Source: an uncultured bacterium
GTDB taxonomy: Bacteria; Tectomicrobia; Entotheonellia; Entotheonellales; Entotheonellaceae
Direction of reading: 5' to 3'
Assembly: GCA_965178525.1 (NCBI GenBank)
Contig: CBCXVS010000137.1
Coordinates: 1-19,046, forward strand
Length of the DNA stretch: 19,046 bases
This document shows positions 34 through 18,677 of the stretch, one piece after another; positions within the stretch are counted from its first letter, which is position 1; the number at the start of each line of letters is the position of its first letter. Made by a program: the position numbers and the translations under genes. Below the pieces are notes generated by a model. That model saw only the letters and a list, made by a program, of their open reading frames with translations. It had not been told where the DNA came from and did not search any database.

Positions 34-2811
34 CTACTTAACCCTCCGCCTATTCTGCCAGGGGAACTTCGGGCTAACGTTGGCATTGAGGCTGTCGCAC
101 CGGGCGTAAACCAACAATTGCGAGTGGTCGGGATCGTCGAAGTTGATCCGATCGCGGGCGGAACTGAGCGTCCGGGACATCGACGTATTGATATTGCTCT
201 GTGACAGGAAACGGGAGAACGCCGTATCCTCTTTTTGCGCCAGGTGGGAATGGATGAGGAGGCGCAGATAGCGGCTGCGCAAATCGCTGGAACTCCGAAA
301 GCGTTTCTGCAACGGCAGGCCGAAATCTTCGGCATTGATCCCTTCGCTGGTGTGATCATTGTGGCAGTTGAAGCATTGCCGCACCAGGGCTTGATAGGCT
401 TTTTGCCCGGCCACGTTGCTAGTATAGCCGTTGCCTTGCGTGTCAAACGCGATACGGTCGGAGAGACCTACCATGGACTGCGTGGTGGAGTAGGTGATCA
501 ATGCCTGCATCTGGGCCGGTGTCCAGTGTTGGGTGTGGTCGTATTGCGCGTTGATGGTCGCGATGGCGTCGACGATGCGCGGATCAAATGTGGCGCCATA
601 ATCTCCGAAACGCGTCAAGTCGCGGCTACGGTCATCCGGGAATCCCGGCTCTTCCGGCCGACTCAGGTCATCGCCCAACAGCAAGGCCCACAGGAACGGC
701 GCGGCATGATAATTGTCATCAAAGCCCATGGGATTAATGGAATTGTTGATATACGGCGCCACCTCCTCCGTTTCACGGAGTTTGTGTGCGCCGCGGACGA
801 GGGCGAGCCAGGCCGGACTCTGGGAGCGTGCGCCGGTCGGGTTCGAGAGATCCAATGGGTGCCGCGAGTCGTGGCAATCGGCACAGGCGAGGCCGCTGCG
901 GGTCTCGGTCGTGGTAAACAGAGGCATGATGTCCCGGTGGAAGTCCGGCGCCGCGCTCTCGGCATCGTAGCCGCTCGCATCCTGCACGCCGGAGAGGTCG
1001 TCACCTTGCATCTTCTGCGAGGCGACGGTCTCCAACGCCTTGTATCGATCAATGTTTTCCTGCGAGCGTTCCTGATGACACTGATTACACGCATTGACCC
1101 GATTAGGCACGAAGCTGATCTCTTGCCGCTCCGCGCGGATCGGAATGTAGAGGTACGAATCCTGATAGGGAAAACTTTTGTAGAGTTTCCAGATGTAGAG
1201 ACCGGGGTTCAGGATGGCGCCGATGGAGCCGTCATTTTCGAGTTCCAGGAAGGTGCTGGCGGGTACCGACAATTCCGGTGAGCTGCTCCACCCCAATTTG
1301 CCAATGGCCTGGGAACTCGAAAAGGTGTGGGAGGGGATAAAAAATTTCAGTCGGAGATCCTCGGGCAACATCCCATTGGTTTGGTGTTGCACGCCGTTGT
1401 CCGATTGCGTCAAATTTTGCACGAGAAAGCCGGCATGGCTATTAAGGGCGAGGTTGGTGAACGAGGTGCGGCTTTCGCTGATATCGCCTTCGTTCGGCGC
1501 GGCGATGCGGCGCTCTGGCGGATAGAAGCTGCGCGGCTGAACGAAGTGGAGATCGTCATGGCTCATGATGAGCGTGCGGACGCCAGCGGTGGTGTCACCG
1601 TTTAGGTCGGTGGGATAGTCCTTGAGGTAAATGCCGTAGCTCCGCTCCTTGGTCTCCCGATAGGCATAGACCATACTTTCGTCGTTGTAATGCTCTGGAT
1701 TACGGGCGATATGCATCCCATCATCGTGCACTTCCAAAGGGACGCGGTCGCTGCGGAGATCGAAATGCTGCCGCCGCGTCATCATGACGCTGCCGTCGGC
1801 AACGAAGCTCGCGCGCCCCTGGGCCATGAGAATATACCGGTTGTAGGGGCCAGACTTGATTTCCCGGGCTTGGAAGATATTGGCGGCGCTGCGGTCGGTG
1901 GCGGATTCCTGTCCAAAGAAGGTAAAGTTATCGCTGCCATCCACCTGGATTTTCCACAAGGCGAAGCGGTTGGTGGTCTGTTGGTGTTCCCACTGCGTAA
2001 AGACGACGAGACGCATGCCGTCCTCGAGGTCGATGGCGAGCGGTTCCGTTTGGTGTGAATTGTTGAAGCCGATGCGTTGGGTATCACCGCTTTCGGCGTC
2101 CAGAATATGGATCAGGGGTGTGGCGTCACGATCGTATTCATCGAGCAGGACGCCATCCGGCGGCCCCCCGTAATTCAGGGGGAGTTCGGATGCCTGCACC
2201 GATTTGGCGACAAACAAGACCGGGTGGCCGGTGTCCTGGTCGTCACCGACATAGGTGGGATGGATGAAATGCACGGTGTTGTCGTGCGTGATCTTGCGGA
2301 AGGTAAAGGTGGTAAAATCGAAGTCGTAAATACCCAAATGGGTATCGCCCTCACGGCGCATCGAGACGTAGAGACTCTGGCCATTGGGCGCGATGTCAAA
2401 GCTGTGAACGCGAATCTTTTCGGTGTCCTGGCAAGTTTCGTCGAGCAGGGGCAGAAGCTGCCAGCTTTGCACCGTGCCGTCTTCTAACTTCCGGGAGACG
2501 AAGAGCTTATCCTCGAAGCCATCCCCGCTATAGCCTTTGGTGGGGAAGCGCAGATCGTTGCGCTCATCGAGCTTGGACCAGCCGATATAAAAGATATCCG
2601 GATGCAGGCGCGCATCACTGGCAAACCGTGGCGGGCTTTGCGGCACGTAATCTTTGCCGTCGAGTACCGTTTCCAGGACGGCGCACTGTGTAATATCCGG
2701 CGTTCCGCCACCCTCGGGGCCGGCTCCTGTGTCGATGACCGGATTGTCTGTCCGAATACAAGCGTGTAAGACAAAGGCAAGGAGCCAGAGCAAGGGCAAG
2801 AGCCGTTTCAT
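34..2811 (-). CDS. Secreted (possible lipoprotein) c-type cytochrome. N-terminal beta-propeller-like region, C-terminal region with three CXXCH heme-binding motifs (CNQCH, CADCH, CFNCH).
   Basis: Long ORF ending at TAG 34-36. ATG at 2811 follows AAGGA (6-nt spacer) and begins a classic signal peptide MKRLLPLLWLLAFVLHAC; the ORF-track start at 2841 lies 10 codons upstream and lacks an SD. Three CXXCH motifs seen in the translation. Plus-strand ORFs overlapping this gene are shadow ORFs. Confidence 0.8.
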   Translation of the reverse strand: MKRLLPLLWLLAFVLHACIRTDNPVIDTGAGPEGGGTPDITQCAVLETVLDGKDYVPQSPPRFASDARLHPDIFYIGWSKLDERNDLRFPTKGYSGDGFEDKLFVSRKLEDGTVQSWQLLPLLDETCQDTEKIRVHSFDIAPNGQSLYVSMRREGDTHLGIYDFDFTTFTFRKITHDNTVHFIHPTYVGDDQDTGHPVLFVAKSVQASELPLNYGGPPDGVLLDEYDRDATPLIHILDAESGDTQRIGFNNSHQTEPLAIDLEDGMRLVVFTQWEHQQTTNRFALWKIQVDGSDNFTFFGQESATDRSAANIFQAREIKSGPYNRYILMAQGRASFVADGSVMMTRRQHFDLRSDRVPLEVHDDGMHIARNPEHYNDESMVYAYRETKERSYGIYLKDYPTDLNGDTTAGVRTLIMSHDDLHFVQPRSFYPPERRIAAPNEGDISESRTSFTNLALNSHAGFLVQNLTQSDNGVQHQTNGMLPEDLRLKFFIPSHTFSSSQAIGKLGWSSSPELSVPASTFLELENDGSIGAILNPGLYIWKLYKSFPYQDSYLYIPIRAERQEISFVPNRVNACNQCHQERSQENIDRYKALETVASQKMQGDDLSGVQDASGYDAESAAPDFHRDIMPLFTTTETRSGLACADCHDSRHPLDLSNPTGARSQSPAWLALVRGAHKLRETEEVAPYINNSINPMGFDDNYHAAPFLWALLLGDDLSRPEEPGFPDDRSRDLTRFGDYGATFDPRIVDAIATINAQYDHTQHWTPAQMQALITYSTTQSMVGLSDRIAFDTQGNGYTSNVAGQKAYQALVRQCFNCHNDHTSEGINAEDFGLPLQKRFRSSSDLRSRYLRLLIHSHLAQKEDTAFSRFLSQSNINTSMSRTLSSARDRINFDDPDHSQLLVYARCDSLNANVSPKFPWQNRRRVK

Positions 2812-3021
2812 GATCCGTCCTTTTAGTGCGCGACATGACATACGTCTTCATAGCATGCGGTAAGGGGAGGGCAAAAAATGTGCCATTTTTTTTGTGTATG
2901 TGGTGAACGCCGCACCTATCAGGCGAGGAACATTGGCGAGGTGCGCCGGGAGGACGACGTGATGCAAGGAGTTATCAGGAAAGGAGAGGTGTCAGGGAAA
3001 TGGCGGCATATGCCAAGAAAA

Positions 3022-4614: not shown

Positions 4615-5418
4615 GTGGCAGCTACTATGACCGCAAAAGCCAATCCCTGGATGATATGTTCCACGCCGCAGCCACAGGCGCGCTTGCGTCTTTTCTGTTT
4701 TCCGTACGCGGGAGGCGGCGCCTCAGTGTATCGTACCTGGTCTGACGTGTGCCCGCCGGAAATAGAGCTGTGGCGTATTCAACTTCCCGGACGGGAACCC
4801 CGGCTTAGCGAATCGCTGTTTACCCGTTTGACACCGCTGGTGCAGACACTGGCCCCGATCCTCCGCCCGCATTTGCATAAGCCGTTTGTGTTCTTCGGCC
4901 ATAGTATGGGGGCACTGGTCGCCTTCGAACTCGCCCGGCGCCTGCGTCGGCATGACCGTCTCAGCCCGCTGCATCTATTCGTATCGGCGCACCGGGCGCC
5001 CCAGCTCCCGGATCCCGACCCACTCACCTACCCCTTGTCTACACCGGCGTTCATCGAGACCTTGCGCCGCTTGCAGGGGACGCCAGAGGCCATCTTGCAC
5101 AACGCGGAACTCATGGAGTTGATGTTGCCTGTCGTCCGTGCCGATTTTGAGCTCTGCGAGACGTATACCTATACGACAGCGGCGCCTCTGCCGTGCCCGA
5201 TTTCGGCCTTTGGCGGCTTCCAAGATGAGAAGGTAAGCCGTGACGAACTTGCCGAGTGGCGCGCGCAGACGCAGAGCGCCTTCATCCTGCGGATGTTTCC
5301 CGGCAACCATTTTTTCTTACACAGTAATCAGGCGTTACTATGGCGCGTGCTCTTCCGGGAGCTGGAGCCGCGCCTGCAGCAGATGACGGAGGAGGGCGTG
5401 TCGACCGAGTCGAGGTGA
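4615..5418 (+). CDS. Type II thioesterase (alpha/beta-hydrolase editing thioesterase of NRPS/PKS systems).
   Basis: LRLFCFPYAGGGASVYRTW N-terminal signature and GHSMG nucleophile elbow. Starts with GTG 4615 (in-frame ATGs at 4627 and 4651); no clear SD. Stop TGA 5416-5418. Confidence 0.88.
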   Translation: MAATMTAKANPWMICSTPQPQARLRLFCFPYAGGGASVYRTWSDVCPPEIELWRIQLPGREPRLSESLFTRLTPLVQTLAPILRPHLHKPFVFFGHSMGALVAFELARRLRRHDRLSPLHLFVSAHRAPQLPDPDPLTYPLSTPAFIETLRRLQGTPEAILHNAELMELMLPVVRADFELCETYTYTTAAPLPCPISAFGGFQDEKVSRDELAEWRAQTQSAFILRMFPGNHFFLHSNQALLWRVLFRELEPRLQQMTEEGVSTESR

Positions 5419-5610: not shown

Positions 5611-6228
5611 ATGATGATGGCAACGGCGCCGCGAGACGACCAAGAAGATACCACCATCTACAAAGTCGTGATGAATCACGAAGAACAGTATTCGATCTGG
5701 CCGGCCGACCGCGACAACCCACTTGGCTGGCAGGATGTGGGCAAGAGTGGGCTGAAGCCGGAATGCCTGGATTACATCGAGGAAGTATGGACGGATATGC
5801 GTCCGCTCAGCCTGCGCAAACAGATGGAGGAGGCGGCGCAACGCCCCGCGCCCCCTCCGCCGCCTCCGAGTGAGGAACCCGTGGCCGCTGACAGCCGGAC
5901 GGGCGACTCGCTTGTCGACCGCTTGAGCGAGGGGGACCATGCAGTGGAGGTTGGCCTGCGGCCTGACCGGACGGCGCAAGCCTTCAAAGAGAGTCTCGAC
6001 CGTGACTATGTCCATATCAAGTTCACACAGACCCAGGGCGGCACCGAGTTGGGTGTACGCCTAGACCGGGAACGAAGTGATTTGAGTCAGGCCGATTTTG
6101 AAAGCGCCTCTGGAACCGTGCATGTGGAAGGGGGGCTGACTCTGAACTATGTGTCCGTGCGATGCGTGGCGGATATTGATCTGACGACGCTCAGTGGGCG
6201 GGGCCATCTGGAGCCGGTGGAAGCGTAA
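5611..6228 (+). CDS. MbtH-like domain protein with a Pro-rich linker and an uncharacterised ~105-aa C-terminal domain.
   Basis: Residues ~15-75 carry the MbtH signature ([49 protein letters not shown]), then [12 protein letters not shown], then a domain with no motif I recognise. Three consecutive ATGs at 5611-5619; the third gives 6-nt SD spacing. Stop TAA 6226-6228. Confidence 0.85.
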
Positions 6229-6284
6229 GGGCATGGACGGCGCCGGGCAGAGTGTGGTGCTTTTTAGGCGTTTTTAGAGCGTTG

Positions 6285-6304
6285 AACGTTTAAACTTATA
6301 AGTT
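6285..6304. promoter_or_regulatory. AT-rich island with three overlapping palindromes (AACGTT 6285-6290, GTTTAAAC 6288-6295, AACTTATAAGTT 6293-6304) plus a TTTTTAG direct repeat at 6261-6277. Candidate operator/promoter for the downstream ATPase-fragment gene.
   Basis: Read directly. Compositionally distinct from the GC-rich flanks; ~170 nt upstream of ATG 6471. Confidence 0.3.
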
Positions 6305-6470
6305 CCTGGACAAAATTAGCGACATCGTTTTTCCAGAGGAAAAATATGAATTTAATTCTGTTCGGGCACTTAGGCGACATTTCCCGCCGGCTCTGTCCGC
6401 GTTCCTTCTATTGTGCTGTACTGAGCCAACGTATGTGGGGAGAGGCTGGGAGTTCGGGAGGGCAGGGAAG

Positions 6471-7256
6471 ATGCTCATCAGCGGTGCCTGCGTTGCTGCC
6501 GGGATCATGTATGCGGGACTCAAAACCTTGATCAGGCAGCGATCGCAACGAAAAGCGGCTAGGATTATTACGCAAAATGGTCAGGCCAACCAGACATCCT
6601 CGCCCGTGATCGAGGAAGATCGCCACCAGGAGATCGAGGTCCAGCTCTCTCGCGCCTGTGCGATTTCCTCAATTGCTGTAGGTTTATCGATCGTCAGTGC
6701 GTTCGGTTACCCCTTGTTCGGCGTCCTCAGCGCACCTCTCACGGTGTATGGCGCGATTCCCGCCTTCGAACAAGCCTCCGCTGCCATGCTCACCGAAAAT
6801 CGAAAATATATGTCGGTCGTGTGGTCCGCAGTTGTCATTGGCTCCCTCGCCACTGGGCGTTTCTTTTCGGCCGCAGTCCTTACCTGGCTCGATGATTTTG
6901 TCGTCCTGTGGTCCAATCGTTTGTCTTTGTTCAACAAACTCATTGTGGGCGAATTGGAACATCGCTACCAGCTCCTCACCCAACTCTACGGCGTCAAGCC
7001 CGCGTCCGTCTGGGTGCTGGTCGATGACGTGGGGCTCGAGATTCCTTTCTCGGAATTGCAAGTCGGTGATACGGTGGTAATGAGTACAAAAGAAGTGATT
7101 CCCGTCAGGGGTACGGTTGTCGACGGCACCGCGAGAGTCGTCCGGTGGCGGCCGGGCGGAAATGGACAACCCGAGAACAAAGAGATAGGGGATCAGGTTA
7201 CGGCCTCGACCTTGATCCTATCGGGGAGTATTAAAGTGCAAGTGGAAAGTCTCTGA
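6471..7256 (+). CDS. N-terminal fragment of a P1B-type (heavy-metal) P-type ATPase: transmembrane helices plus an actuator (A) domain. TGES motif degenerate (RPGGNG); no phosphorylation/nucleotide-binding domains. Possible pseudogene or repurposed truncated protein.
   Basis: A-domain signature LEIPFSELQVGDTVVMSTKEVIPVRGTVVDGTARV...ASTLILSGSIKVQV matches the CopA/ZntA actuator domain. Ends at TGA 7254-7256 with no DKTGT downstream in any frame. ATG 6471 is preceded by a purine-rich SD (gggagggcagggaag); the ORF-track start is an upstream TTG at 6411. Confidence 0.7.
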   Translation: MLISGACVAAGIMYAGLKTLIRQRSQRKAARIITQNGQANQTSSPVIEEDRHQEIEVQLSRACAISSIAVGLSIVSAFGYPLFGVLSAPLTVYGAIPAFEQASAAMLTENRKYMSVVWSAVVIGSLATGRFFSAAVLTWLDDFVVLWSNRLSLFNKLIVGELEHRYQLLTQLYGVKPASVWVLVDDVGLEIPFSELQVGDTVVMSTKEVIPVRGTVVDGTARVVRWRPGGNGQPENKEIGDQVTASTLILSGSIKVQVESL

Positions 7257-7287
7257 TCGTCCCGACACCACATAGGAGGAATGTCCA

Positions 7288-7542
7288 ATGGCTTTTGTAA
7301 GTTCTTTTTTCATCGTTGGAGGCGTTGGCGCTGTCATTTGGCAACTCAATCGCCGCAAGCAGAGACGGCTGTCAGGACAAAACGGCGACGAGGCGGTTCC
7401 CGCTGCAGCTCCGAGCGCGCCACCTGATGCCTCCCCAGCCCCAGCCGCACCGTCACCTGACCAACACGATGCGCCCGAGGCCTCTAGCGAGGAGCCTGAC
7501 GAGCCCTCTCCGCCACCGGAGACGGCGGCGCCAGAACGCTAA
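7288..7542 (+). CDS. Small single-pass membrane protein with an acidic Pro/Ala-rich disordered tail (84 aa).
   Basis: AGGAGG (7274-7279) + 8 nt + ATG 7288. N-terminal hydrophobic helix FVSSFFIVGGVGAVIWQL, then RRKQRR, then a PAAAPSAPPDASPAPAAPSPD... tail. Stop TAA 7540-7542. Confidence 0.6.
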   Translation: MAFVSSFFIVGGVGAVIWQLNRRKQRRLSGQNGDEAVPAAAPSAPPDASPAPAAPSPDQHDAPEASSEEPDEPSPPPETAAPER

Positions 7543-7562
7543 AGCGCCTCCGCTGATACGCT

Positions 7563-7609
7563 CGCATCCCTGGGCCAGGAGCGTCTGTCTTGATGAGCTC
7601 AGGGATGCG
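7563..7609. other. Strong hairpin: 10-bp stem (7563-7572 / 7600-7609, core GCATCCCTG/CAGGGATGC) with a 27-nt loop, between convergent genes. Possible bidirectional terminator lacking a clear U-tract.
   Basis: Inverted repeat read directly. Only a weak T-run (ggttta) follows on the plus strand. Confidence 0.3.
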
Positions 7610-7641
7610 GACCCGGTTTATGCCCAGCGCTTCCCCCCAGT

Positions 7642-8166
7642 TTATCTCTTGTGCATGATCGCCACGGGAGGCGGTTGAAAATCACGTGGCCACTGTGTCC
7701 TGTCCGTGTAGTGAGCGCCTTGCAAATCAGTCGATGCCTCGCCTTCCGTTGTGGTCAAGACCGCGTTGCTAAGATTGGCTCTGTGTAGTCTGGCGCCGTT
7801 CAAGAGGGCGTGTTTCAGGTTCGCACGGACCAACGTGGCAAAATCCAGACACCCGCCGCTGAGCATGGCTGCCGAGAGATCAGCGCCACTGAGATTGGCC
7901 TGGGTCAGATGGGCCCCTGACAGGCTGGCATGTACCATGGCGTCCACCAAATGGGCACGAATCAAGTTAGCGCCTGACAAATTGGCGCCCGACAAATTGG
8001 CGCTGCTCAAGTTAATCGAACGCAAATCCGCACCACGCAAATCCGCACCGCTCTGCTGCGTGGACGGCTCGCCCAGGTTGGCGCCCGAGAGATTGGCGCC
8101 AACCAGGTTGGCTCCTACCAAAAGTTGGCATGCATCAATTGCGCGCCGCTCAGGTTCACGCCCCAC
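7642..8166 (-). CDS. Pentapeptide-repeat protein, C-terminal portion. Likely the 3' part of a single gene with 8115-8786, disrupted by a 1-nt frameshift.
   Basis: Tandem A(N/D)LxG pentapeptide units. GTG start at 8166 overlaps the upstream ORF by 52 nt and has a stop 9 codons upstream in frame. Inserting one nt after AAC (~8122) fuses the frames into a continuous array ...MHANLLVGANLVGANLSGANL. Contains 15-nt tandem duplications at 7976-8005 and 8021-8049. Confidence 0.7.
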   Translation of the reverse strand: MGREPERRAIDACQLLVGANLVGANLSGANLGEPSTQQSGADLRGADLRSINLSSANLSGANLSGANLIRAHLVDAMVHASLSGAHLTQANLSGADLSAAMLSGGCLDFATLVRANLKHALLNGARLHRANLSNAVLTTTEGEASTDLQGAHYTDRTQWPRDFQPPPVAIMHKR

Positions 8167-8786
8167 AATGCCGCCCCAATCAGACGCACGCTATTCATGA
8201 CCGCTGCCCTGAGGTTGACGTTCGTGAGATTGACGCGCGTGAGAATCGTTCCGGTCAGGTCGGCGCCCGAGAGGTCAGCGCCATCGAGAATCGCTGCTGC
8301 CAAGTTGGCGTCTCGTAAATCGGCGCCAACGAATTTGGCTCGCGATAGGTTGGTTCTCACCAGGTCCGCGCCGCGTAGATTCGCCCCCGAGAGATCGGCG
8401 CCCGAGAGGTCGCTGCCCCGAAGGCGTGCCTGGGACAATAAGGCTCTGCTAAGATTGGCGTTACGGAGATCTAGGCCGCTTAACTCTCTCCCGCGTAGAT
8501 TGACGCCGATGCACGTCGGAGGACACCCGGCTGGCAAGGCGGCAGACTGGCACCCCGCCACGATGGCCAGGAGCGTCGCCATCGCCATGACCGGCCGGCA
8601 CACGTAAAGCGCCAGTTTGAGGGCCACAAGGTTTACAACATCAAGGTAAACAGGTGGCCACTCGGCGGTACGCCGTACGATGGCGATCAATCCTTGTAGA
8701 TGCGCCGGCGGCATAGGGACGCCGTTGTTGTCCATGACCTCTTGCCTCTCGGGGAACGGTGGCGGCGGTTTAAGGCGGCGGCGCAT
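8115..8786 (-). CDS. Membrane-anchored pentapeptide-repeat protein, N-terminal portion of the probable fused gene. TM helix, then a CPPTC-IGVNLRGR motif, then the repeat array.
   Basis: Paralogous to 8887-9807 (shared TM + CxPxCxGxNLRGR + pentapeptide architecture). Start uncertain: ATG 8786 lacks an SD; internal ATG 8735 (MDNNGV) is an alternative. Stop TAG 8115-8117. Confidence 0.75.
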   Translation of the reverse strand: MRRRLKPPPPFPERQEVMDNNGVPMPPAHLQGLIAIVRRTAEWPPVYLDVVNLVALKLALYVCRPVMAMATLLAIVAGCQSAALPAGCPPTCIGVNLRGRELSGLDLRNANLSRALLSQARLRGSDLSGADLSGANLRGADLVRTNLSRAKFVGADLRDANLAAAILDGADLSGADLTGTILTRVNLTNVNLRAAVMNSVRLIGAALWGVNLSGAQLMHANFW

Positions 8787-8886
8787 GCATCCGGAGAGCC
8801 GGGGGCAAGCGGGTCATGGCATCCACATGGATGCCTCGCGTCTCGGCCTGACGACACACCTTGCTCCGTTGCTGCGGATTTAAGCC

Positions 8887-9807
8887 TTACAACACCGGAT
8901 CCAGTCCCAAATGGTAACACTCATGCTGTGAGACGAAGACGCGAACTGCCGTGAGATCTGCCGACCTCAAGTCAACGCTGTGGAGGACGGCGCCGACTAA
9001 CAGCGCGCCGATTAAGTTGGTTTTATACAGGTTGGCAGACGCCAATGTGCTCCCGGCCAAGCTCGCGCCGGCGAGGTTGGCCTGCGTCAAGTCCGCTCCC
9101 GTCAGGTTGGCAAGGTTCAGCCATGCCCCCGAGAGATCGGCTTTGGTTAAGCGGCTGCCGCTTAAATCGGCTCGGCTCAGGCGACTCCCGCTCAATGTGG
9201 CTTCCCGCAAATCTGCCCCGATCAGACGTGCCGCGACCAGTTCAACCCCTGAGAGGTTGGCGCCACGCAAAAGCGCTTGGGTCACATCCGCCCCGTTGAG
9301 GATGACGCCGTCAAGTCGCACTTGCGTTAAGTCAAGCCCCGCCAAGTCGGCACGAATCAGGCGCGCGCCGCGCATATCGGCGCCACGCAGGATGGCTCCA
9401 CCCAAGTCCGCATCCGTCAAATCCGTCCCGAGCAGGGTGGCCTCTGTCAAGTCCGCATGTTTTAGATTCGCGCCAATGAGGCTGGCGCCTGAAAAATCCG
9501 CCGCGATCAGTTTGGTCGCACTCAGATCCGCCCGGCGCAAATTCGCTTCGATGAAGCCGGTTCCGCTCAAATCGAGACCATGCAAGTTGCGGCCTCTCAG
9601 ATTCATACCGACACAGTCCGGGGAGCATCGAACCGTGTGCACGATCCAAGAGCGTGCCACAAGAATCATGGCGCCGACAAGCGCCAGGGCGATAGCAATC
9701 CGAAGGTAGAGCATGCGTTTTAAAGTCGCACCCGATTGACCCAGCAGTATGGTACAGAGAACAATCAAGCCGACGAGAGCCGAGAGGATCACGGGTATAT
9801 GTATCAT
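8887..9807 (-). CDS. Membrane-anchored pentapeptide-repeat protein (two N-terminal TM helices, CSPDC-VGMNLRGR motif, ~40 pentapeptide units).
   Basis: 306-aa ORF. AGGAG immediately abuts ATG 9807 (0-nt spacing), so the start is somewhat uncertain. Stop TAA 8887-8889. Confidence 0.85.
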   Translation of the reverse strand: MIHIPVILSALVGLIVLCTILLGQSGATLKRMLYLRIAIALALVGAMILVARSWIVHTVRCSPDCVGMNLRGRNLHGLDLSGTGFIEANLRRADLSATKLIAADFSGASLIGANLKHADLTEATLLGTDLTDADLGGAILRGADMRGARLIRADLAGLDLTQVRLDGVILNGADVTQALLRGANLSGVELVAARLIGADLREATLSGSRLSRADLSGSRLTKADLSGAWLNLANLTGADLTQANLAGASLAGSTLASANLYKTNLIGALLVGAVLHSVDLRSADLTAVRVFVSQHECYHLGLDPVL

Positions 9808-9971: not shown

Positions 9972-10730
9972 TTAGCTCTCCGATTGGGATGCTGCTGTGG
10001 ACGGTGACACGGCTGCCGGCCCTTGTCCCACTTCCTGCAGTGCCCGCTTGAATGCCTCGTTGTCTTTTTCGGCGACCTCGTCGATCGCCCGCAAGATGAG
10101 TTGTGGCTTCTCGTTTGTTGGCACGGCATCGTAATCCGACAGCGTCACGGACGTCAAATTATTCTCCACGAGTCTGACGAAAAGTGCTTGCCCAAAGGCT
10201 TGATTCCGCCTGCTGTCCGGATTGCGCTCAAATGCCAGGAGTTGCTTGTAAACATTCAGGTCATACTGCGATACGGCCGCTTGCTGGCAGGCCCAGCAAT
10301 ACTGCAACACCACCTGACTCATATCTTGCGCCAGTTGAGGATTTTTGTTGAGTTTGCCCTCCACTAATTCCCCAAGTTCAAAGCCCATATCTGAACAGAA
10401 TATCGCTAAGTGGTCGGTGAAGGCCTGAAGGCTGTTCTCAGAGAGCGACGCGATCCAATTTCTCACGTCCTCATTGGCTGCAGGCGCATTGGCGACCCAC
10501 GTGTGAAACTGCTGCGGTAACTCGGCGGATTGCCGGTTCATCACTTTATCGTACCAGCCTTGGAGCCAACTCGTCCCGGCCTCAATACCACTGCTGATCG
10601 TTTCTTGTATCGGCTCGGTCATGGACCCCCAGGTCGGTAGTTGCTCCTGCTTCTGCAAACGCCTATCCACGACGATGGACGCCGCCCCAACGACGACCGC
10701 GAGAAGGGCCAGAGGGACAAGTACCATCAT
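9972..10730 (-). CDS. Hypothetical protein with an N-terminal TM anchor and a ~230-aa helical soluble domain of unknown function.
   Basis: 252-aa ORF. AAGGAG SD 4-7 nt upstream of a tandem ATGATG. Start overlaps (ATGA) the stop of the 30-codon upstream ORF. Stop TAA 9972-9974. Confidence 0.75.
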   Translation of the reverse strand: MMVLVPLALLAVVVGAASIVVDRRLQKQEQLPTWGSMTEPIQETISSGIEAGTSWLQGWYDKVMNRQSAELPQQFHTWVANAPAANEDVRNWIASLSENSLQAFTDHLAIFCSDMGFELGELVEGKLNKNPQLAQDMSQVVLQYCWACQQAAVSQYDLNVYKQLLAFERNPDSRRNQAFGQALFVRLVENNLTSVTLSDYDAVPTNEKPQLILRAIDEVAEKDNEAFKRALQEVGQGPAAVSPSTAASQSES

Positions 10731-10948: not shown

Positions 10949-12028
10949 CTACGGAGGCGGTCTTGATGTCATCAAGTCGGGCGATGAGGCATCCATCGAC
11001 AGCGGCCGTTGTCTGCCGTCATGTTCATCTAGTTTCGGGAGGGGCAGGATCAACGGCGTGTGACTGGGTACCAGTATGGCGTGCAGCTTTGGTGACAACT
11101 TCTCAATATATTGATAGGTCAACAAATTGGGATTTTGTTCCAGCGCTTTTGCGATCAATGCTAAGGCATCCGCTTGGCCTTCGGCCTCGATTTTGATCGC
11201 GTCCTTTCGGCCTGCAGCCATGTTGCGCATCTGTTGGGCTTTATGTAGCGCTTCCTCCTTTCCTTCTAAGGCAATTTGTTTGCGCTCAATCGACTCGGCA
11301 TACTCCGCTGTAAAGGTAACATCACGAAGGAGGACCTGGTCCAGAATGAAACCTCTGTTCGCAAATTCTGTCCGCAAGATCCGATCGAGCGTGGTTTCTA
11401 GGTCTCTGAGGTCCGAACTATTGACTTCTCGCACGGTAAATTGTGAGACTTGCGTGCGGACGAAGCCCCGCGTCACCGGTCGTACCAGATCGACGATATA
11501 ACGGTTTTGCCAGTCCGTATGTACCGAAACGGCCTGTTCGGTGTCAACACGGAAGATGACCGAGCAATCCAGGCGTACTTCTTGGCCATCGCTGGTGCGG
11601 GCCCGGATCGAATCATCACCCAGCTCCGCCCCTTCGGCAGGTCTGCCAGACATGGTATAGGTTTGCCAGTAGATGGGATACGAGACATCACGCTCGAGAA
11701 AAGGCAGAATCCAATGCAACCCGGCTCGTAACGGCTGTGGCCGGATGCCGCCTGGAGAGACGAGAGAGACGACCACCGCCACGTAGGGGGGTTGCACAAA
11801 AACCAGGGCGGCGCTGAGTAGACTAATGCCAAGGATCAACAAAAACGGCAGCATGACGCGAGAGGAAAGCAACCGCAGAATACCGAAACGAACCCCCTGT
11901 CGCCACCCGGTGGCGATACACATGTAGATCGCATATATTGCAAAGAGCCACCATAAGATGACGGTGGTATATCCCAACAGTGTATCGAATGTGGTGATGG
12001 TGAAGGAGCCTGTCCCTTGCATAGGCAC
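10949..12028 (-). CDS. SPFH/band-7 domain membrane protein (stomatin/prohibitin/HflK-C family).
   Basis: Two N-terminal TM helices followed by an SPFH domain (…QVSQFTVREVNSSDLRDLETTLDRILRTEFANRGFILDQVLLRDVTFTAEYAESIERKQIALEGKEEALHKAQ…). GTG 12028 or ATG 12022 start. Stop TAG 10949-10951. Confidence 0.88.
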   Translation of the reverse strand: MPMQGTGSFTITTFDTLLGYTTVILWWLFAIYAIYMCIATGWRQGVRFGILRLLSSRVMLPFLLILGISLLSAALVFVQPPYVAVVVSLVSPGGIRPQPLRAGLHWILPFLERDVSYPIYWQTYTMSGRPAEGAELGDDSIRARTSDGQEVRLDCSVIFRVDTEQAVSVHTDWQNRYIVDLVRPVTRGFVRTQVSQFTVREVNSSDLRDLETTLDRILRTEFANRGFILDQVLLRDVTFTAEYAESIERKQIALEGKEEALHKAQQMRNMAAGRKDAIKIEAEGQADALALIAKALEQNPNLLTYQYIEKLSPKLHAILVPSHTPLILPLPKLDEHDGRQRPLSMDASSPDLMTSRPPP

Positions 12029-15916: not shown

Positions 15917-16909
15917 TTGCGCCTCGCCCGGCTACCCGGCAGCCGTTCGGGTAACCCGCGGCTCTACCCGGAATCGCGGCCCATCATCCACCCGGGAAAA
16001 AGCGAGTTCTTATCCATCACGACTAGCACGAGAGATAACCTCATCGCCTTGTTCAGCGGGTCGGGAATCGGTCTGCTAGTGGGCGTCCTGATGGGAATCG
16101 CCGTCTCGCCGACCGTGGGTATCGTCATAGGCGCCCTGGCCTCGTCTCTTGCTTTGATGCTGGGACTCAACGATCAGCATTTCAGCCACGCCAAGGCGTT
16201 TCGAATCGGGTCCTTCGGTTTCGTCTGTGTCGCCGGTGCGTTTCTGGGAATCTTCATCCGCACACACCACCTACTGGCCCCGAGTCTTCAGACCCAGCTG
16301 AATGACTACGCCAAGGCCGGATACACGAAGGAAGAAGCCCTGGATTTCATCAAGTTCACCAAATTCGGGATCTTGAACCCCAACTGGAAAATAGCTAGCA
16401 TGGAAGCTGAACGTGACGAAGGTAAGGGTGAGGGAGAGCAGCTAGGAGCCGGAAAACCCTCACACCCTATCGCACCGCTCCCGCAATTGGCGGCGACCGG
16501 GGTGCTGTATGGTGCGGAGATCGACGCAAGCGCATGCACCATATTGAAAGATAAAGACGAGAAGAACGTGTCCGACCAATTCTACATTCTGGGGGATGTC
16601 TGGGAGCGTCTGGCCACAGCCGTCGAACAGGACTTCGACGAGCGTACCACGCCAGGTGTGCTGCTGACCATCAGGGATGGCATCTGTGGTGACGACGGCG
16701 CGGCCAAGGCGAAGTTCGAGAAGTGCCCGACACTGGCGAATCTCAACGAGCAGACGGGGCTACCACAGATCGCTCGCAGCTTCGAGAAAGCCGGTCCATC
16801 CTGGCAACGGCTCGTCGACGCCGTGCAGGAACGCATCGACCAGGAGCATCAGAGCAAGGTCTTGCTGATCCTCCAAAGAAAGATCTGCCATGAAGAGAAG
16901 CAAGGTTGA
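15917..16909 (+). CDS. Hypothetical membrane protein (three predicted TM helices, then a ~200-aa soluble C-terminal domain of unknown function).
   Basis: 330-aa ORF from TTG 15917 (start uncertain). The 3' end overlaps the protease gene by 20 nt (operon). TM segments LIALFSGSGIGLLVGVLMGIAVS, PTVGIVIGALASSLALMLGL and FRIGSFGFVCVAGAFLGIFIRTH. Stop TGA 16907-16909. Confidence 0.7.
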   Translation: MRLARLPGSRSGNPRLYPESRPIIHPGKSEFLSITTSTRDNLIALFSGSGIGLLVGVLMGIAVSPTVGIVIGALASSLALMLGLNDQHFSHAKAFRIGSFGFVCVAGAFLGIFIRTHHLLAPSLQTQLNDYAKAGYTKEEALDFIKFTKFGILNPNWKIASMEAERDEGKGEGEQLGAGKPSHPIAPLPQLAATGVLYGAEIDASACTILKDKDEKNVSDQFYILGDVWERLATAVEQDFDERTTPGVLLTIRDGICGDDGAAKAKFEKCPTLANLNEQTGLPQIARSFEKAGPSWQRLVDAVQERIDQEHQSKVLLILQRKICHEEKQG

Positions 16910-18677
16910 CCACAGGTTAGTCCGGATCGTACTCGCCCTCATTCTCAGTGGCCTGGTCGCTAGCGAGGTACCTGCGCTCGACCAGCGACTGTTGAACCAG
17001 GCGCTCGCGAAAATCACCGTCCTCGAGAAAGGAAGCCCAACGGCCCGCGCGAGTGGCTTCGCATGGAAAAAGAAGGAGTGGGTCGTCACATCTCTCCACG
17101 CCATGCGGAAAGGCGCCAGATACCAGGTCGAACGACCAGAGGACAAGGGAATATGGCAGGCCGTACCGATCGCCCACGTCACGGACCACGACCTCGTCCT
17201 TCTCGAGCTTCGATCCCCCAAGGGTAAGAAGCTCACCGCGAAAAAGCTTCCCAGTTGGAACCCGTTGAAAACGTTCGCCCAGGCCCCTGGATTTGGAAGG
17301 GACGTTTTCGCTCTGGGCTACTACGGGGATACGCCGAAACCGAGATTCATCATACTGAAAGTCGAGGGCAGTAGCCCGCTGGAGGAAAAGATTCCAGCGG
17401 CGCACGCGGCGAAGATCAAGCGCGCAAAAATGCCGAACGTTGTGCTTCCGGTACTCCACTTCATGACGACGAGTCTCTTGCCGGGCTTCTCCGGCACACC
17501 GTTGGTCAATGAAGATGGGCACCTCGTCGCCATTGCGGACGGGGGACTCGAGAAGGGTGCGATCGACATCAGCTGGGGGATTCACGCCGCTCACCTGGAT
17601 CACCTCCAGAAAGCGGTCGGGACCGGCCTTCCGGCAAACTTGGGGGCAGCCGCGCAACACTACTCGGCAGGGTTGGGCGCGGGTCAGAAAGTACAGAGCG
17701 TCAAGTTCGGTCCGTACGAGTTCGTCCACAAGAAGACGAGGACCTTCGGTCAAATGCTCGAAACGGTCGACAATCGTACAGACCTGGAATACCAGCTTAA
17801 GGATTTTCAGCATGTCGACATTTCATCCTTCCGGTACGACATCTATCAAGATCTGGACAACGGTTTCATTATTGCCGTGCCTGCCGGCCATGACTTGAAA
17901 GTAAACGCGGACGACGGCCTCCCTGCCGTCCAATTCAAGGGTTATCCGATCATCTACAACGCCGGGATGGATCCCGAGAGCATGCGGAAAGTGCTGGGAG
18001 CGGAAGACATCCATCAGGCGCTGGTTGACATGTTCCGGGAGGTCGTCGGCGAGGGCGCCGCGGCTTTGTCGTTTGACGACGACGGGTCTGCTTGTGACAG
18101 AAGTCGGGACGGCGGCGTGCTGGCGACGTTGGCCTTCAATGTCGGCGACCCGGTCGCAGGGTACAGCTTCACGAAGGTAGCGGCCAAAGGCCAACTCTTC
18201 CTGGGGGCGACAACGTTCCTGGCGGACTACAACGAAAAGGTGGCGGTGCAACTGGGACAGAATGGGTGCTTCCAGCAACGAGTAGACTGTAGGCAGCAAA
18301 TCGATCCCTCCGCGCCCTGCGCCACAGTCTGCAACTGGTTGCACGTGTTGACGAGCGTTTACCTCACAACTTTTTCGAACTTCAAGGCTGCCGGCAAAGG
18401 TTGCAACCGGGCCAACGAACCGGAGGTGTTCAAGGCAACCGACCTTTCCCGCACGATCCACGGCGTGATCGACTGGGCCAGCTTCGAGCCGAATGCGATC
18501 AGCCTGGCTGAACAGGGGTTGTATCTGCGTGACCTGGAGGTTCTTATAGAAGGGGGGCAGTGGGTGCTCGGAGGTGTCCATCAACCGCTTCCCGTTCAGA
18601 CATTCTGGAGATACGGATACGACATCAACACGTTCAGTTCCAAAGTCGGGAGACTCGCTCAACAAGGCTCCAACTGA
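16890..18677 (+). CDS. Secreted trypsin-like (S1/chymotrypsin-fold) serine protease with a large Cys-rich C-terminal extension; the reading frame very likely continues to 19003 after a 1-nt frameshift.
   Basis: Signal peptide MKRSKVDHRLVRIVLALILSGLVASE. Catalytic triad candidates H70 (TSLHAM), D101 (DHDLVLLEL) and S201 (PGFSGTPLV). >=8 Cys in the C-terminal region. Ends QQGSN-TGA exactly where the next frame begins a homologous repeat. Confidence 0.85.
   Translation: MKRSKVDHRLVRIVLALILSGLVASEVPALDQRLLNQALAKITVLEKGSPTARASGFAWKKKEWVVTSLHAMRKGARYQVERPEDKGIWQAVPIAHVTDHDLVLLELRSPKGKKLTAKKLPSWNPLKTFAQAPGFGRDVFALGYYGDTPKPRFIILKVEGSSPLEEKIPAAHAAKIKRAKMPNVVLPVLHFMTTSLLPGFSGTPLVNEDGHLVAIADGGLEKGAIDISWGIHAAHLDHLQKAVGTGLPANLGAAAQHYSAGLGAGQKVQSVKFGPYEFVHKKTRTFGQMLETVDNRTDLEYQLKDFQHVDISSFRYDIYQDLDNGFIIAVPAGHDLKVNADDGLPAVQFKGYPIIYNAGMDPESMRKVLGAEDIHQALVDMFREVVGEGAAALSFDDDGSACDRSRDGGVLATLAFNVGDPVAGYSFTKVAAKGQLFLGATTFLADYNEKVAVQLGQNGCFQQRVDCRQQIDPSAPCATVCNWLHVLTSVYLTTFSNFKAAGKGCNRANEPEVFKATDLSRTIHGVIDWASFEPNAISLAEQGLYLRDLEVLIEGGQWVLGGVHQPLPVQTFWRYGYDINTFSSKVGRLAQQGSN

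Follow-up and report, generated by a model that had tools for sequence, protein, structure and literature searches.

In P-type ATPases the actuator (A) domain makes sense only as a phosphatase of the phosphorylation (P) domain, and in the heavy-metal pumps of the P1B type chaperones and metal-binding domains dock on the MB platform. A shortened P1B product is exemplified by CopA(Z), a soluble metal-binding domain of ~70 residues that arises from E. coli copA by programmed frameshifting and has a role of its own. Here we describe a gene for a truncated P1B-ATPase-like protein (tATPase) in a 19,046-nt stretch of DNA from an uncultured bacterium of the Entotheonellaceae (contig CBCXVS010000137.1; the whole stretch is hereafter called the window). 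The protein is likewise a shortened P1B product, but differs from CopA(Z) in being encoded by a separate gene, in lacking a CxxC domain and in consisting of membrane helices and an A-domain. With CopA, ZntA and CadA (TIGR01525, PF00122) it shares homologous MA, MB, M1 and M2 helices and the A-domain core; unlike these pumps it has no M3-M6, no CPx motif, no DKTGT motif or P-domain, no nucleotide-binding (N) domain, no N-terminal metal-binding domain and no Glu of the TGES motif. Sequence comparisons indicate that it belongs to a conserved family of pump-derived pseudoenzymes in whose vicinity a small partner gene and an SPFH neighbourhood recur.

The tATPase coding sequence occupies positions 6471-7256 of the plus strand, from ATG 6471 to a TGA stop codon at 7254-7256, and specifies 261 amino acids (aa), as do its same-length orthologues. 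An alternative upstream start, TTG 6411, would give a longer reading of the open reading frame (ORF). All members of the 31-member family alignment described below share the N-terminus ML(I/F)(V/I)N at the position of ATG 6471, and the purine-rich translation-initiation region at 6445-6470 (plus strand; GGGAG...GGGCAGGGAAG) is conserved between the window and L002 (L-numbers denote fetched loci), both of which carry the stretch GGGAG..GGGCAGGRAAG-ATG. Because the N-terminus is shared and the initiation region is kept in L002, we regard ATG 6471 rather than TTG 6411 as the real start. Two ways of extending the product at its other end were rejected. A frameshift fusion with the small ORF downstream is ruled out by a TAG codon at 7273-7275 in the frame of that ORF. 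In-frame read-through past the stop codon was considered because of a tblastn extension to 7343 against a full-length relative, which amounted to two Trp matches, and it is also disfavoured because stop codons vary among the orthologues (TGA, TAA and TAG; GC content at third codon positions ranges from 0.31 to 0.86). The source of the extension, judged spurious, is a 48-aa Arg/Trp-rich ORF at 7281-7427 (plus strand) that lies in the tATPase frame and overlaps the start of the small-protein gene.

Profile searches placed the protein with the heavy-metal pumps. The Pfam model E1-E2_ATPase (PF00122) scored 41.9 bits against a gathering threshold of 28.1 (E 1e-10), with positions 3-86 of its 181 covered, and residues 30-260 matched positions 94-314 of the 731 in the NCBIfam ZntA model, including the helices that precede the A-domain. 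TIGR01525, which recognises functional P1B proteins as a whole, gave 41.1 bits, far short of its cut-off of 346. PF00122, partially covered, was the only model to pass its cut-off, and no curated family in Pfam or NCBIfam covers the truncated form. Only residues 3-92 of the 113 in the Archaeoglobus fulgidus CopA A-domain (2hc8) aligned, and the A-domain is therefore recognisable but ~21 C-terminal residues short. The structure predicted by AlphaFold with the family alignment as input (mean predicted local distance difference test score 82) contained helices at residues 2-33, 45-77, 81-94, 96-107, 113-127 and 131-172 followed by six strands; its top Foldseek matches were the P1B pumps 7r0g, 4bbj and 3j08 (probability 1.0), and the modelled A-domain superposed on 2hc8 with a root-mean-square deviation of 2.3 A over 92 residues. 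The initial annotation, made from the DNA letters, had described P1B-type transmembrane (TM) helices with a recognisable A-domain, which the profile and structure searches bear out. It had also placed the truncation at the A-domain; the pump is indeed cut after the A-domain core, but the domain itself is incomplete.

The first segment of the protein is an extra N-terminal helix, TM0 (residues 1-20; 6471-6569, plus strand), which is followed by a basic cluster, falls within model helix 2-33 and occupies the place that the metal-binding domain has in classical pumps. Equivalents of MA, MB (the kinked platform), M1 and M2 span residues ~56-172 (6636-6986, plus strand), as seen in the ZntA alignment, the model and the Foldseek matches; full-length ATPases align to the family profile from position ~35-60 on in HMMER searches. 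The beta-core of the A-domain covers residues ~176-261 (6996-7253, plus strand), as indicated by PF00122, 2hc8 and a ratio of nonsynonymous to synonymous substitution (dN/dS) of 0.22-0.28. Given the basic residues after TM0 and the topology of P1B pumps, the protein would have its N-terminus outside, five helices and a cytoplasmic A-like domain.

The dephosphorylation loop at 7155-7166 (plus strand) is degenerate, with GGNG (G229-G-N-G232) in place of TGES. This replacement, which had been noticed from the sequence, was borne out by both the 2hc8 and the tblastn alignments; since SGEP/TGES aligns to GGNG, the position of the catalytic Glu is held by Asn. In the family as a whole, TGE is kept in 3 of the 31 members and the catalytic Glu is lost in the other 28. 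No DKTGT motif or P-domain was detected in the 261-aa protein by Pfam and NCBIfam, nor in the window by tblastn. Seven pump-derived tblastn queries (five full-length and two degenerate forms), run against the whole 19-kb window, found nothing pump-like beyond 6471-7256, and hence no P-domain, N-domain or complementary half, in agreement with the earlier observation that neither domain follows the gene. Of the eight helices of a functional P1B pump (MA, MB and M1-M6), tATPase has MA-M2, preceded by TM0, and M3-M6 are absent together with the CPx-type ion site of M4. Because the phosphorylation site, the nucleotide site and the ion-binding helices are missing and the TGES loop is unconstrained, tATPase cannot hydrolyse ATP or transport ions by the P-type cycle.

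The truncated form recurs in other sequences. A word-indexed search returned two relatives, 63% and 49% identical to the window protein, both exactly 261 aa long and aligning to it without gaps. An exhaustive HMMER search over 1.84 billion cluster representatives gave 37 representatives at E<=1e-30, among which the proteins of 250-285 aa span the profile between residues 1 and ~260; ~30 further representatives of 250-285 aa share the tATPase end-point, and below the truncated forms the scores grade into full-length pumps of 650-850 aa. With the 31-member alignment as query, the word-indexed search brought up 9 proteins only, and it is through the exhaustive search that the family becomes visible. 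This family alignment (A2) holds 31 truncated members, the window protein included, which are 26-63% identical to it. Their C-termini fall within 0-3 residues after '...SGxIxxRVExx' in 26 cases and 4-13 residues further on in the remaining five. The family signature thus comprises a TM0 of the form ML(I/F)xN..GG..YAG, MA-M2, the A-core and an end after 'SGxIxxRVExx', which the window protein matches from end to end; it reaches 324 bits against the family hidden Markov model (HMM), whose underlying alignment contains the window sequence itself. A comparison of orthologous loci, which the initial annotation had proposed, showed that close orthologues are truncated alike and that none is full-length.

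Patterns of substitution argue that this form is under selection. Among the window gene and the two 261-aa relatives, Nei-Gojobori estimates gave dS of 0.8-1.3 and dN/dS of 0.32-0.38 overall and 0.22-0.28 in the A-domain part; other family pairs gave dN/dS of 0.23-0.44. Mean column entropy in the 31-member alignment was lowest of all segments in TM0 (1.62 bits), followed by the A-domain core (1.7-1.9 bits) and the MB platform (1.89 bits), and rose to 2.71 bits in the TGES loop, nearly as variable as the inter-helix linker at 3.05 bits. Judged from the sequences, this pattern is the signature of a pseudoenzyme, in which TM0, the MB platform and the A-core are conserved and the catalytic loop is free to vary. 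We are highly confident that the gene is real, selectively maintained and non-catalytic.

Comparison with longer relatives points to the origin of the family. The full-length proteins that fit the family profile best, such as P0037 and P0045, share TM0, the platform region, a VW motif (W181) and the A-core with the truncated members. The full-length CPx-less relatives comprise P0037 (719 aa), P0045 (670 aa) and genes in L015, L019, L028 (765 aa), L030 (786 aa), L054 and L089; they have LTGE(S/A)QP, DKTGT and GDGIND, pass the TIGR01525 cut-off and have no CPx in M4, and by their sequences they look like working pumps. tATPase corresponds to the N-terminal ~40% only of these relatives, which keep the catalytic motifs. 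On this evidence tATPase appears to derive from a CPx-less branch of P1B-type ATPases. In a separate scan of genome contigs, the matches listed held only an ordinary Paraburkholderia P1B ATPase at 22% identity.

Further members of this branch are degenerate in other ways. In a 585-aa form (L033/35/37; L033 8213-9970) the three motifs read ATGD, VIDGKTL and GNGQDD, a 608-aa form in L019 (2227-4053) lacks DKTGT, and a 459-aa form in L010 (2161-3540) has its own MA-M2 helices, no A-domain and IDVNL for DKTGT. The degenerate genes of L010 (459 aa) and L033 (585 aa) lie directly upstream of the orthologue of a Band_7 gene that is also present in the window. TM-only forms of 180-201 aa occur in L044 (2073-2678) and L054 (12786-13328), where they match profile positions 1-143 (TM0, MA, MB and M1) and have no A-domain; a 197-aa ORF in L007 (4633-5226), which the family HMM and tblastn missed, was counted with them by eye from its N-terminal resemblance. 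In four loci, L007, L015, L028 and L054, a truncated member has a full-length paralogue no more than 10 kb away. The window gene may thus be seen as one stable state in a branch that, as the sequences suggest, has lost catalysis repeatedly.

Immediately downstream of tATPase lies a gene for an 84-aa protein (7288-7542, plus strand) with a ribosome-binding site, AGGAGG, read from the sequence at 7274-7279 (plus strand), 8 nt before ATG 7288. Its product has a Gly-rich hydrophobic helix (MAFVSSFFIVGGVGAVIWQL; residues 2-20), a basic cluster (NRRKQRR) and a 57-residue acidic, Pro/Ala-rich tail (15 P, 13 A, 12 D/E and 1 K/R). The initial annotation had recorded a small acidic single-TM protein with a tail rich in Pro, Ala, Asp and Glu, and this description was correct; moreover, the protein is a recurrent partner and not an incidental ORF. 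Homologous small ORFs stand beside the tATPase gene in five other loci (L002, L006, L007, L008 and L010) and share the pattern M(G/S/A)F...F(L/I)xGxxxG(S/G)xxxW, a basic cluster and a Pro/Ala-rich tail. They lie downstream of tATPase in L002 and L006 and upstream in L007 and L008; in L010 the small ORF is also upstream, with a phosphopantetheinyl transferase gene in between. When an HMM was built from four of the small ORFs, with that of the window excluded, 7288-7542 ranked first of 1046 window ORFs (E 0.0017; next 0.8). In L008 (531-953) the partner is a 140-aa protein in which the Gly-rich helix is fused to a helix-hairpin-helix (HhH) domain. In L007 (1822-2203) a Gly-rich helix, in a 66-aa ORF, and an HhH-like part (2012-2203) occupy different frames, which suggests a frameshift or an assembly error. 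KdpF, FXYD proteins, phospholamban and sarcolipin are single-helix regulators of P-type ATPases, and the gene pair resembles these systems in that a tiny one-helix protein is encoded beside a P-type ATPase-like gene. It differs from them in that no sequence relationship exists, the partner is a non-catalytic fragment, and the small protein carries a long acidic Pro/Ala tail or, in L008, an HhH domain.

The second recurrent neighbour is an SPFH/Band_7 (prohibitin-family) gene at 10949-12028 (minus strand; PF01145), 3.7 kb from tATPase. Its product is 61-65% identical to the Band_7 proteins of L008/L009 and L010, within an overall range of 61-67% for the recurring Band_7 neighbour. In L008/L009 the orthologous Band_7 gene follows tATPase directly, and in L010 one gene stands in between. 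Among 80 metagenomic loci fetched with the window Band_7 as query, it directly follows tATPase in L028 and L040, a full-length relative in L030 and a degenerate relative in L033/35/37; in L015, L019/20, L044, L054 and L089 relatives of the pump lie within 10 kb of Band_7. The nearest named relatives of the window Band_7 protein come from Ca. Entotheonella serta (64%), a Tectomicrobia metagenome-assembled genome (MAG; 63%) and Caldilineaceae MAGs (~64%), which would fit an origin of the window in a Tectomicrobia- or Chloroflexota-like bacterium. Known partner systems of SPFH proteins include HflK/C-FtsH and the SPFH-NfeD operons, where likewise a membrane-protein gene recurs beside a same-strand SPFH/Band_7 gene. 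tATPase differs from FtsH and NfeD in that it belongs with neither the proteases nor the NfeD proteins: PF00122 is its one Pfam match, no NfeD family is among its Pfam and NCBIfam matches, and the link is seen in a minority of the loci of this Band_7 clade.

Other genes accompany Band_7 in the same loci. A 252-aa protein with an N-terminal TM segment (9972-10730, minus strand) follows Band_7 in the window and in L010, L028 and L040. It belongs to a family of ~230-256 aa with an N-terminal TM segment and a helical domain, found at 4699-4788 in L010, at 11069-11785 in L028 and in two copies (6393-7091 and 11227-11997) in L040; the homology was recognised by tblastn in L010 and by eye in L028 and L040, and the window protein has no Pfam, NCBIfam or PADLOC match. 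Genes for pentapeptide-repeat membrane proteins (PF00805; one of 306 aa and a split pair of 223 and 174 aa) occupy 7642-9807 on the minus strand, and similar genes follow Band_7 in L028, L040, L091 and L093. The gene order in L028 and L040 is tATPase, Band_7, the 250-aa protein, a solute-binding protein (L028 only) and a pentapeptide-repeat protein. The same set is found in the window, where it occupies the minus strand between 14932 and 7642, and the window is therefore a rearranged version of the L028/L040 neighbourhood. The setting in L004/L005 differs, with ferredoxin-like genes and a C1 peptidase and with neither the small partner nor Band_7, so that there is no universal tATPase operon. 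PADLOC gave no anti-phage defence match for tATPase, the small protein, Band_7, the 252-aa, the pentapeptide or the MbtH-like proteins.

We favour the reading, with a probability of roughly 0.6, that tATPase is an intact, selected gene for a non-catalytic structural or regulatory (scaffold) subunit derived from the CPx-less P1B branch. A scaffold role in particular is proposed because selection keeps TM0, the kinked MB platform and the A-core, and because the platform docks partners in pumps. These three parts would form a docking module whose partner within the membrane would be the small Gly-rich protein encoded next to it, and the module could cooperate either with the SPFH/Band_7 scaffold protein encoded nearby or with paralogues, full-length or degenerate, from its own pump branch. 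A specific scaffold function tied to SPFH is a tentative proposal, which we hold to be less likely than not. It is more speculative still, and we consider it rather doubtful, that the CPx-less branch has repeatedly been turned into non-catalytic proteins (TM plus A-domain forms, TM-only forms, and forms without the A- or N-domain whose phosphorylation site is dead) which, with the small helix protein, serve as dedicated SPFH clients or adaptors. Several observations weigh against the reading we favour. The functional assignment draws solely on gene neighbourhood, the dN/dS values of 0.3-0.4 represent moderate constraint only, and the window has no full-length paralogue. The similarity of the small ORFs to the window copy is weak and concerns the hydrophobic helix, and L004/L005, L015, L028 and L040 yielded no small partner. 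The link to SPFH is not obligatory: among the 80 metagenomic loci retrieved by the Band_7 query, about 85% show no ATPase-like neighbour; L015, L028 and L040 were found via Band_7 and are biased towards showing it; no Band_7 lies near tATPase in L004/L005 or L007; and in the Entotheonella and Tectomicrobia loci examined, pentapeptide genes follow Band_7 and no truncated pump is present.

The alternative that the gene is a decaying pseudogene, as the initial annotation had suggested first, would make it a drifting remnant of a P1B ATPase whose 3' part was deleted. The ORF does stop inside the A-domain with TGES destroyed and no P- or N-domain after it, and in some distant loci (L030) a full-length relative holds the Band_7-adjacent position. 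These features are outweighed by the gapless alignment of 261 residues at 49-63% identity despite dS of 0.8-1.3, by the same end-point in ~30 diverse representatives with dN/dS of 0.22-0.44, by conservation of the initiation region, and by a pattern in which the catalytic loop alone has decayed while the core is kept; we consider decay extremely improbable. The other option named in that annotation, a stand-alone regulatory or scaffold derivative of a pump, gains support from the maintenance of the truncated form down to ~26% identity. A split active pump, in which tATPase supplies the A-domain half, another gene elsewhere in the genome supplies the M3-M6/P/N half and the two reconstitute a working ATPase, is suggested by L010, where the product of the adjacent gene resembles a P-type ATPase that is missing exactly the A-domain. 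That partner, however, has its own MA-M2 helices and a DKTGT degenerated to IDVNL, which makes it catalytically dead, the window protein and nearly all of its family have lost the catalytic Glu, tATPase lacks the final segment of the A-domain and the connection to M3, and no complementary half is present in the window, L004/L005, L008, L028 or L040. We therefore regard a split pump as improbable.

Regulation in trans of full-length paralogues, independent of SPFH, is a weightier competitor, although still an unlikely one. Here tATPase would act as a dominant-negative or assembly partner through MA, MB, M1 and M2, and the small protein would resemble phospholamban or FXYD; regulation of P-type ATPases by small single-helix proteins is established biology. 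The short distances between truncated and full-length genes of the same branch in L007, L015, L028 and L054 fit this explanation, as do the TM0 and VW motif (W181) common to the family and the full-length paralogues. It is at odds with the lack of a nearby full-length paralogue in the window, L004/L005, L008 and L040, and hetero-oligomerisation is not known to be required by P1B pumps. An autonomous function of the five helices, as an oligomeric channel or a sensor that the A-like domain would plug from the cytosolic side, might be imagined from the TM-only paralogues of 180-201 aa in L044, L054 and L007, which suggest that the helices alone can be retained. The ion-binding helices M4-M6 are absent, however, and Pfam, NCBIfam and the PDB gave no channel-like family match, so that such a function appears very unlikely.

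The region upstream of tATPase had been described as an AT-rich island with an operator-like palindrome. An intergenic stretch at 6280-6360 is indeed AT-rich (~69% A+T) and contains the perfect palindrome AACTTATAAGTT at 6293-6304 as well as AACGTT and TTTAAA, but an operator role lacks statistical and comparative support. Perfect 12-bp palindromes number three in the window against ~4.6 expected by our own estimate for random sequence, and AACTTATAAGTT occurs in none of the 94 fetched loci. The palindrome, being neither enriched nor conserved, was rejected as an operator. A promoter and terminator scan found nothing at 6000-7900, with no sigma-70-like site scored, and Rfam gave no match in the window. 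The composition of the stretch may be that of a promoter region.

Some further features of the window were recorded. The pentapeptide ORFs at 8115-8786 (223 aa) and 7642-8166 (174 aa), on the minus strand, overlap and match residues 5-161 and 161-320 of one 328-aa Tectomicrobia protein in L093; the same two-part match is seen to a single 339-aa Ca. Entotheonella protein in L091. As the two ORFs are one protein elsewhere, the gene is frameshifted or split near 8115-8166, by either a sequencing error or a real disruption. Upstream of tATPase, a 205-aa protein (5611-6228, plus strand) combines an MbtH domain at its N-terminus with a C-terminal extension matching Pfam CBF_beta (E 2.6e-7); its gene adjoins one for a type II thioesterase (4615-5418, plus strand), and no non-ribosomal peptide synthetase (NRPS) or polyketide synthase gene is present in the window. 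With the phosphopantetheinyl transferase gene by tATPase in L010, NRPS accessory genes thus recur near the family. A 935-aa protein encoded at 34-2841 (minus strand) has an N-terminal hydrophobic segment and three CxxCH motifs (CNQCH, CADCH and CFNCH) without a Pfam or NCBIfam match, and may be an unclassified multihaem c-type cytochrome. At 15917-18677 (plus strand) a 330-aa ORF without a Pfam match overlaps the start of a gene for a 595-aa protein with an N-terminal trypsin-like peptidase domain.

Taken together, these results describe a rare, conserved family of membrane proteins of ~260 residues that keep the front half of a heavy-metal P-type ATPase and that are apparently undescribed: we found no description of stand-alone TM plus A-domain proteins in the literature, including the review PMC10654040, in a survey whose incomplete coverage makes this absence of evidence only. 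One relative of the window protein is labelled 'cation transport ATPase' in one source; this label should be avoided for such proteins, and they should not be discarded as pseudogenes. Conservation of the A-core and the first four or five helices, with nothing to dephosphorylate, suggests a function of their own in docking, scaffolding or regulation, and the family offers a minimal system provided by nature in which the MA/MB platform and the A-domain can be studied apart from catalysis. If tATPase is truly linked to SPFH and the small protein, it would be a new type of partner for bacterial SPFH/prohibitin systems, whose clients are mostly unknown; and should these proteins prove to be SPFH clients, they would constitute a previously unrecognised SPFH partner system made of pump pseudoenzymes.

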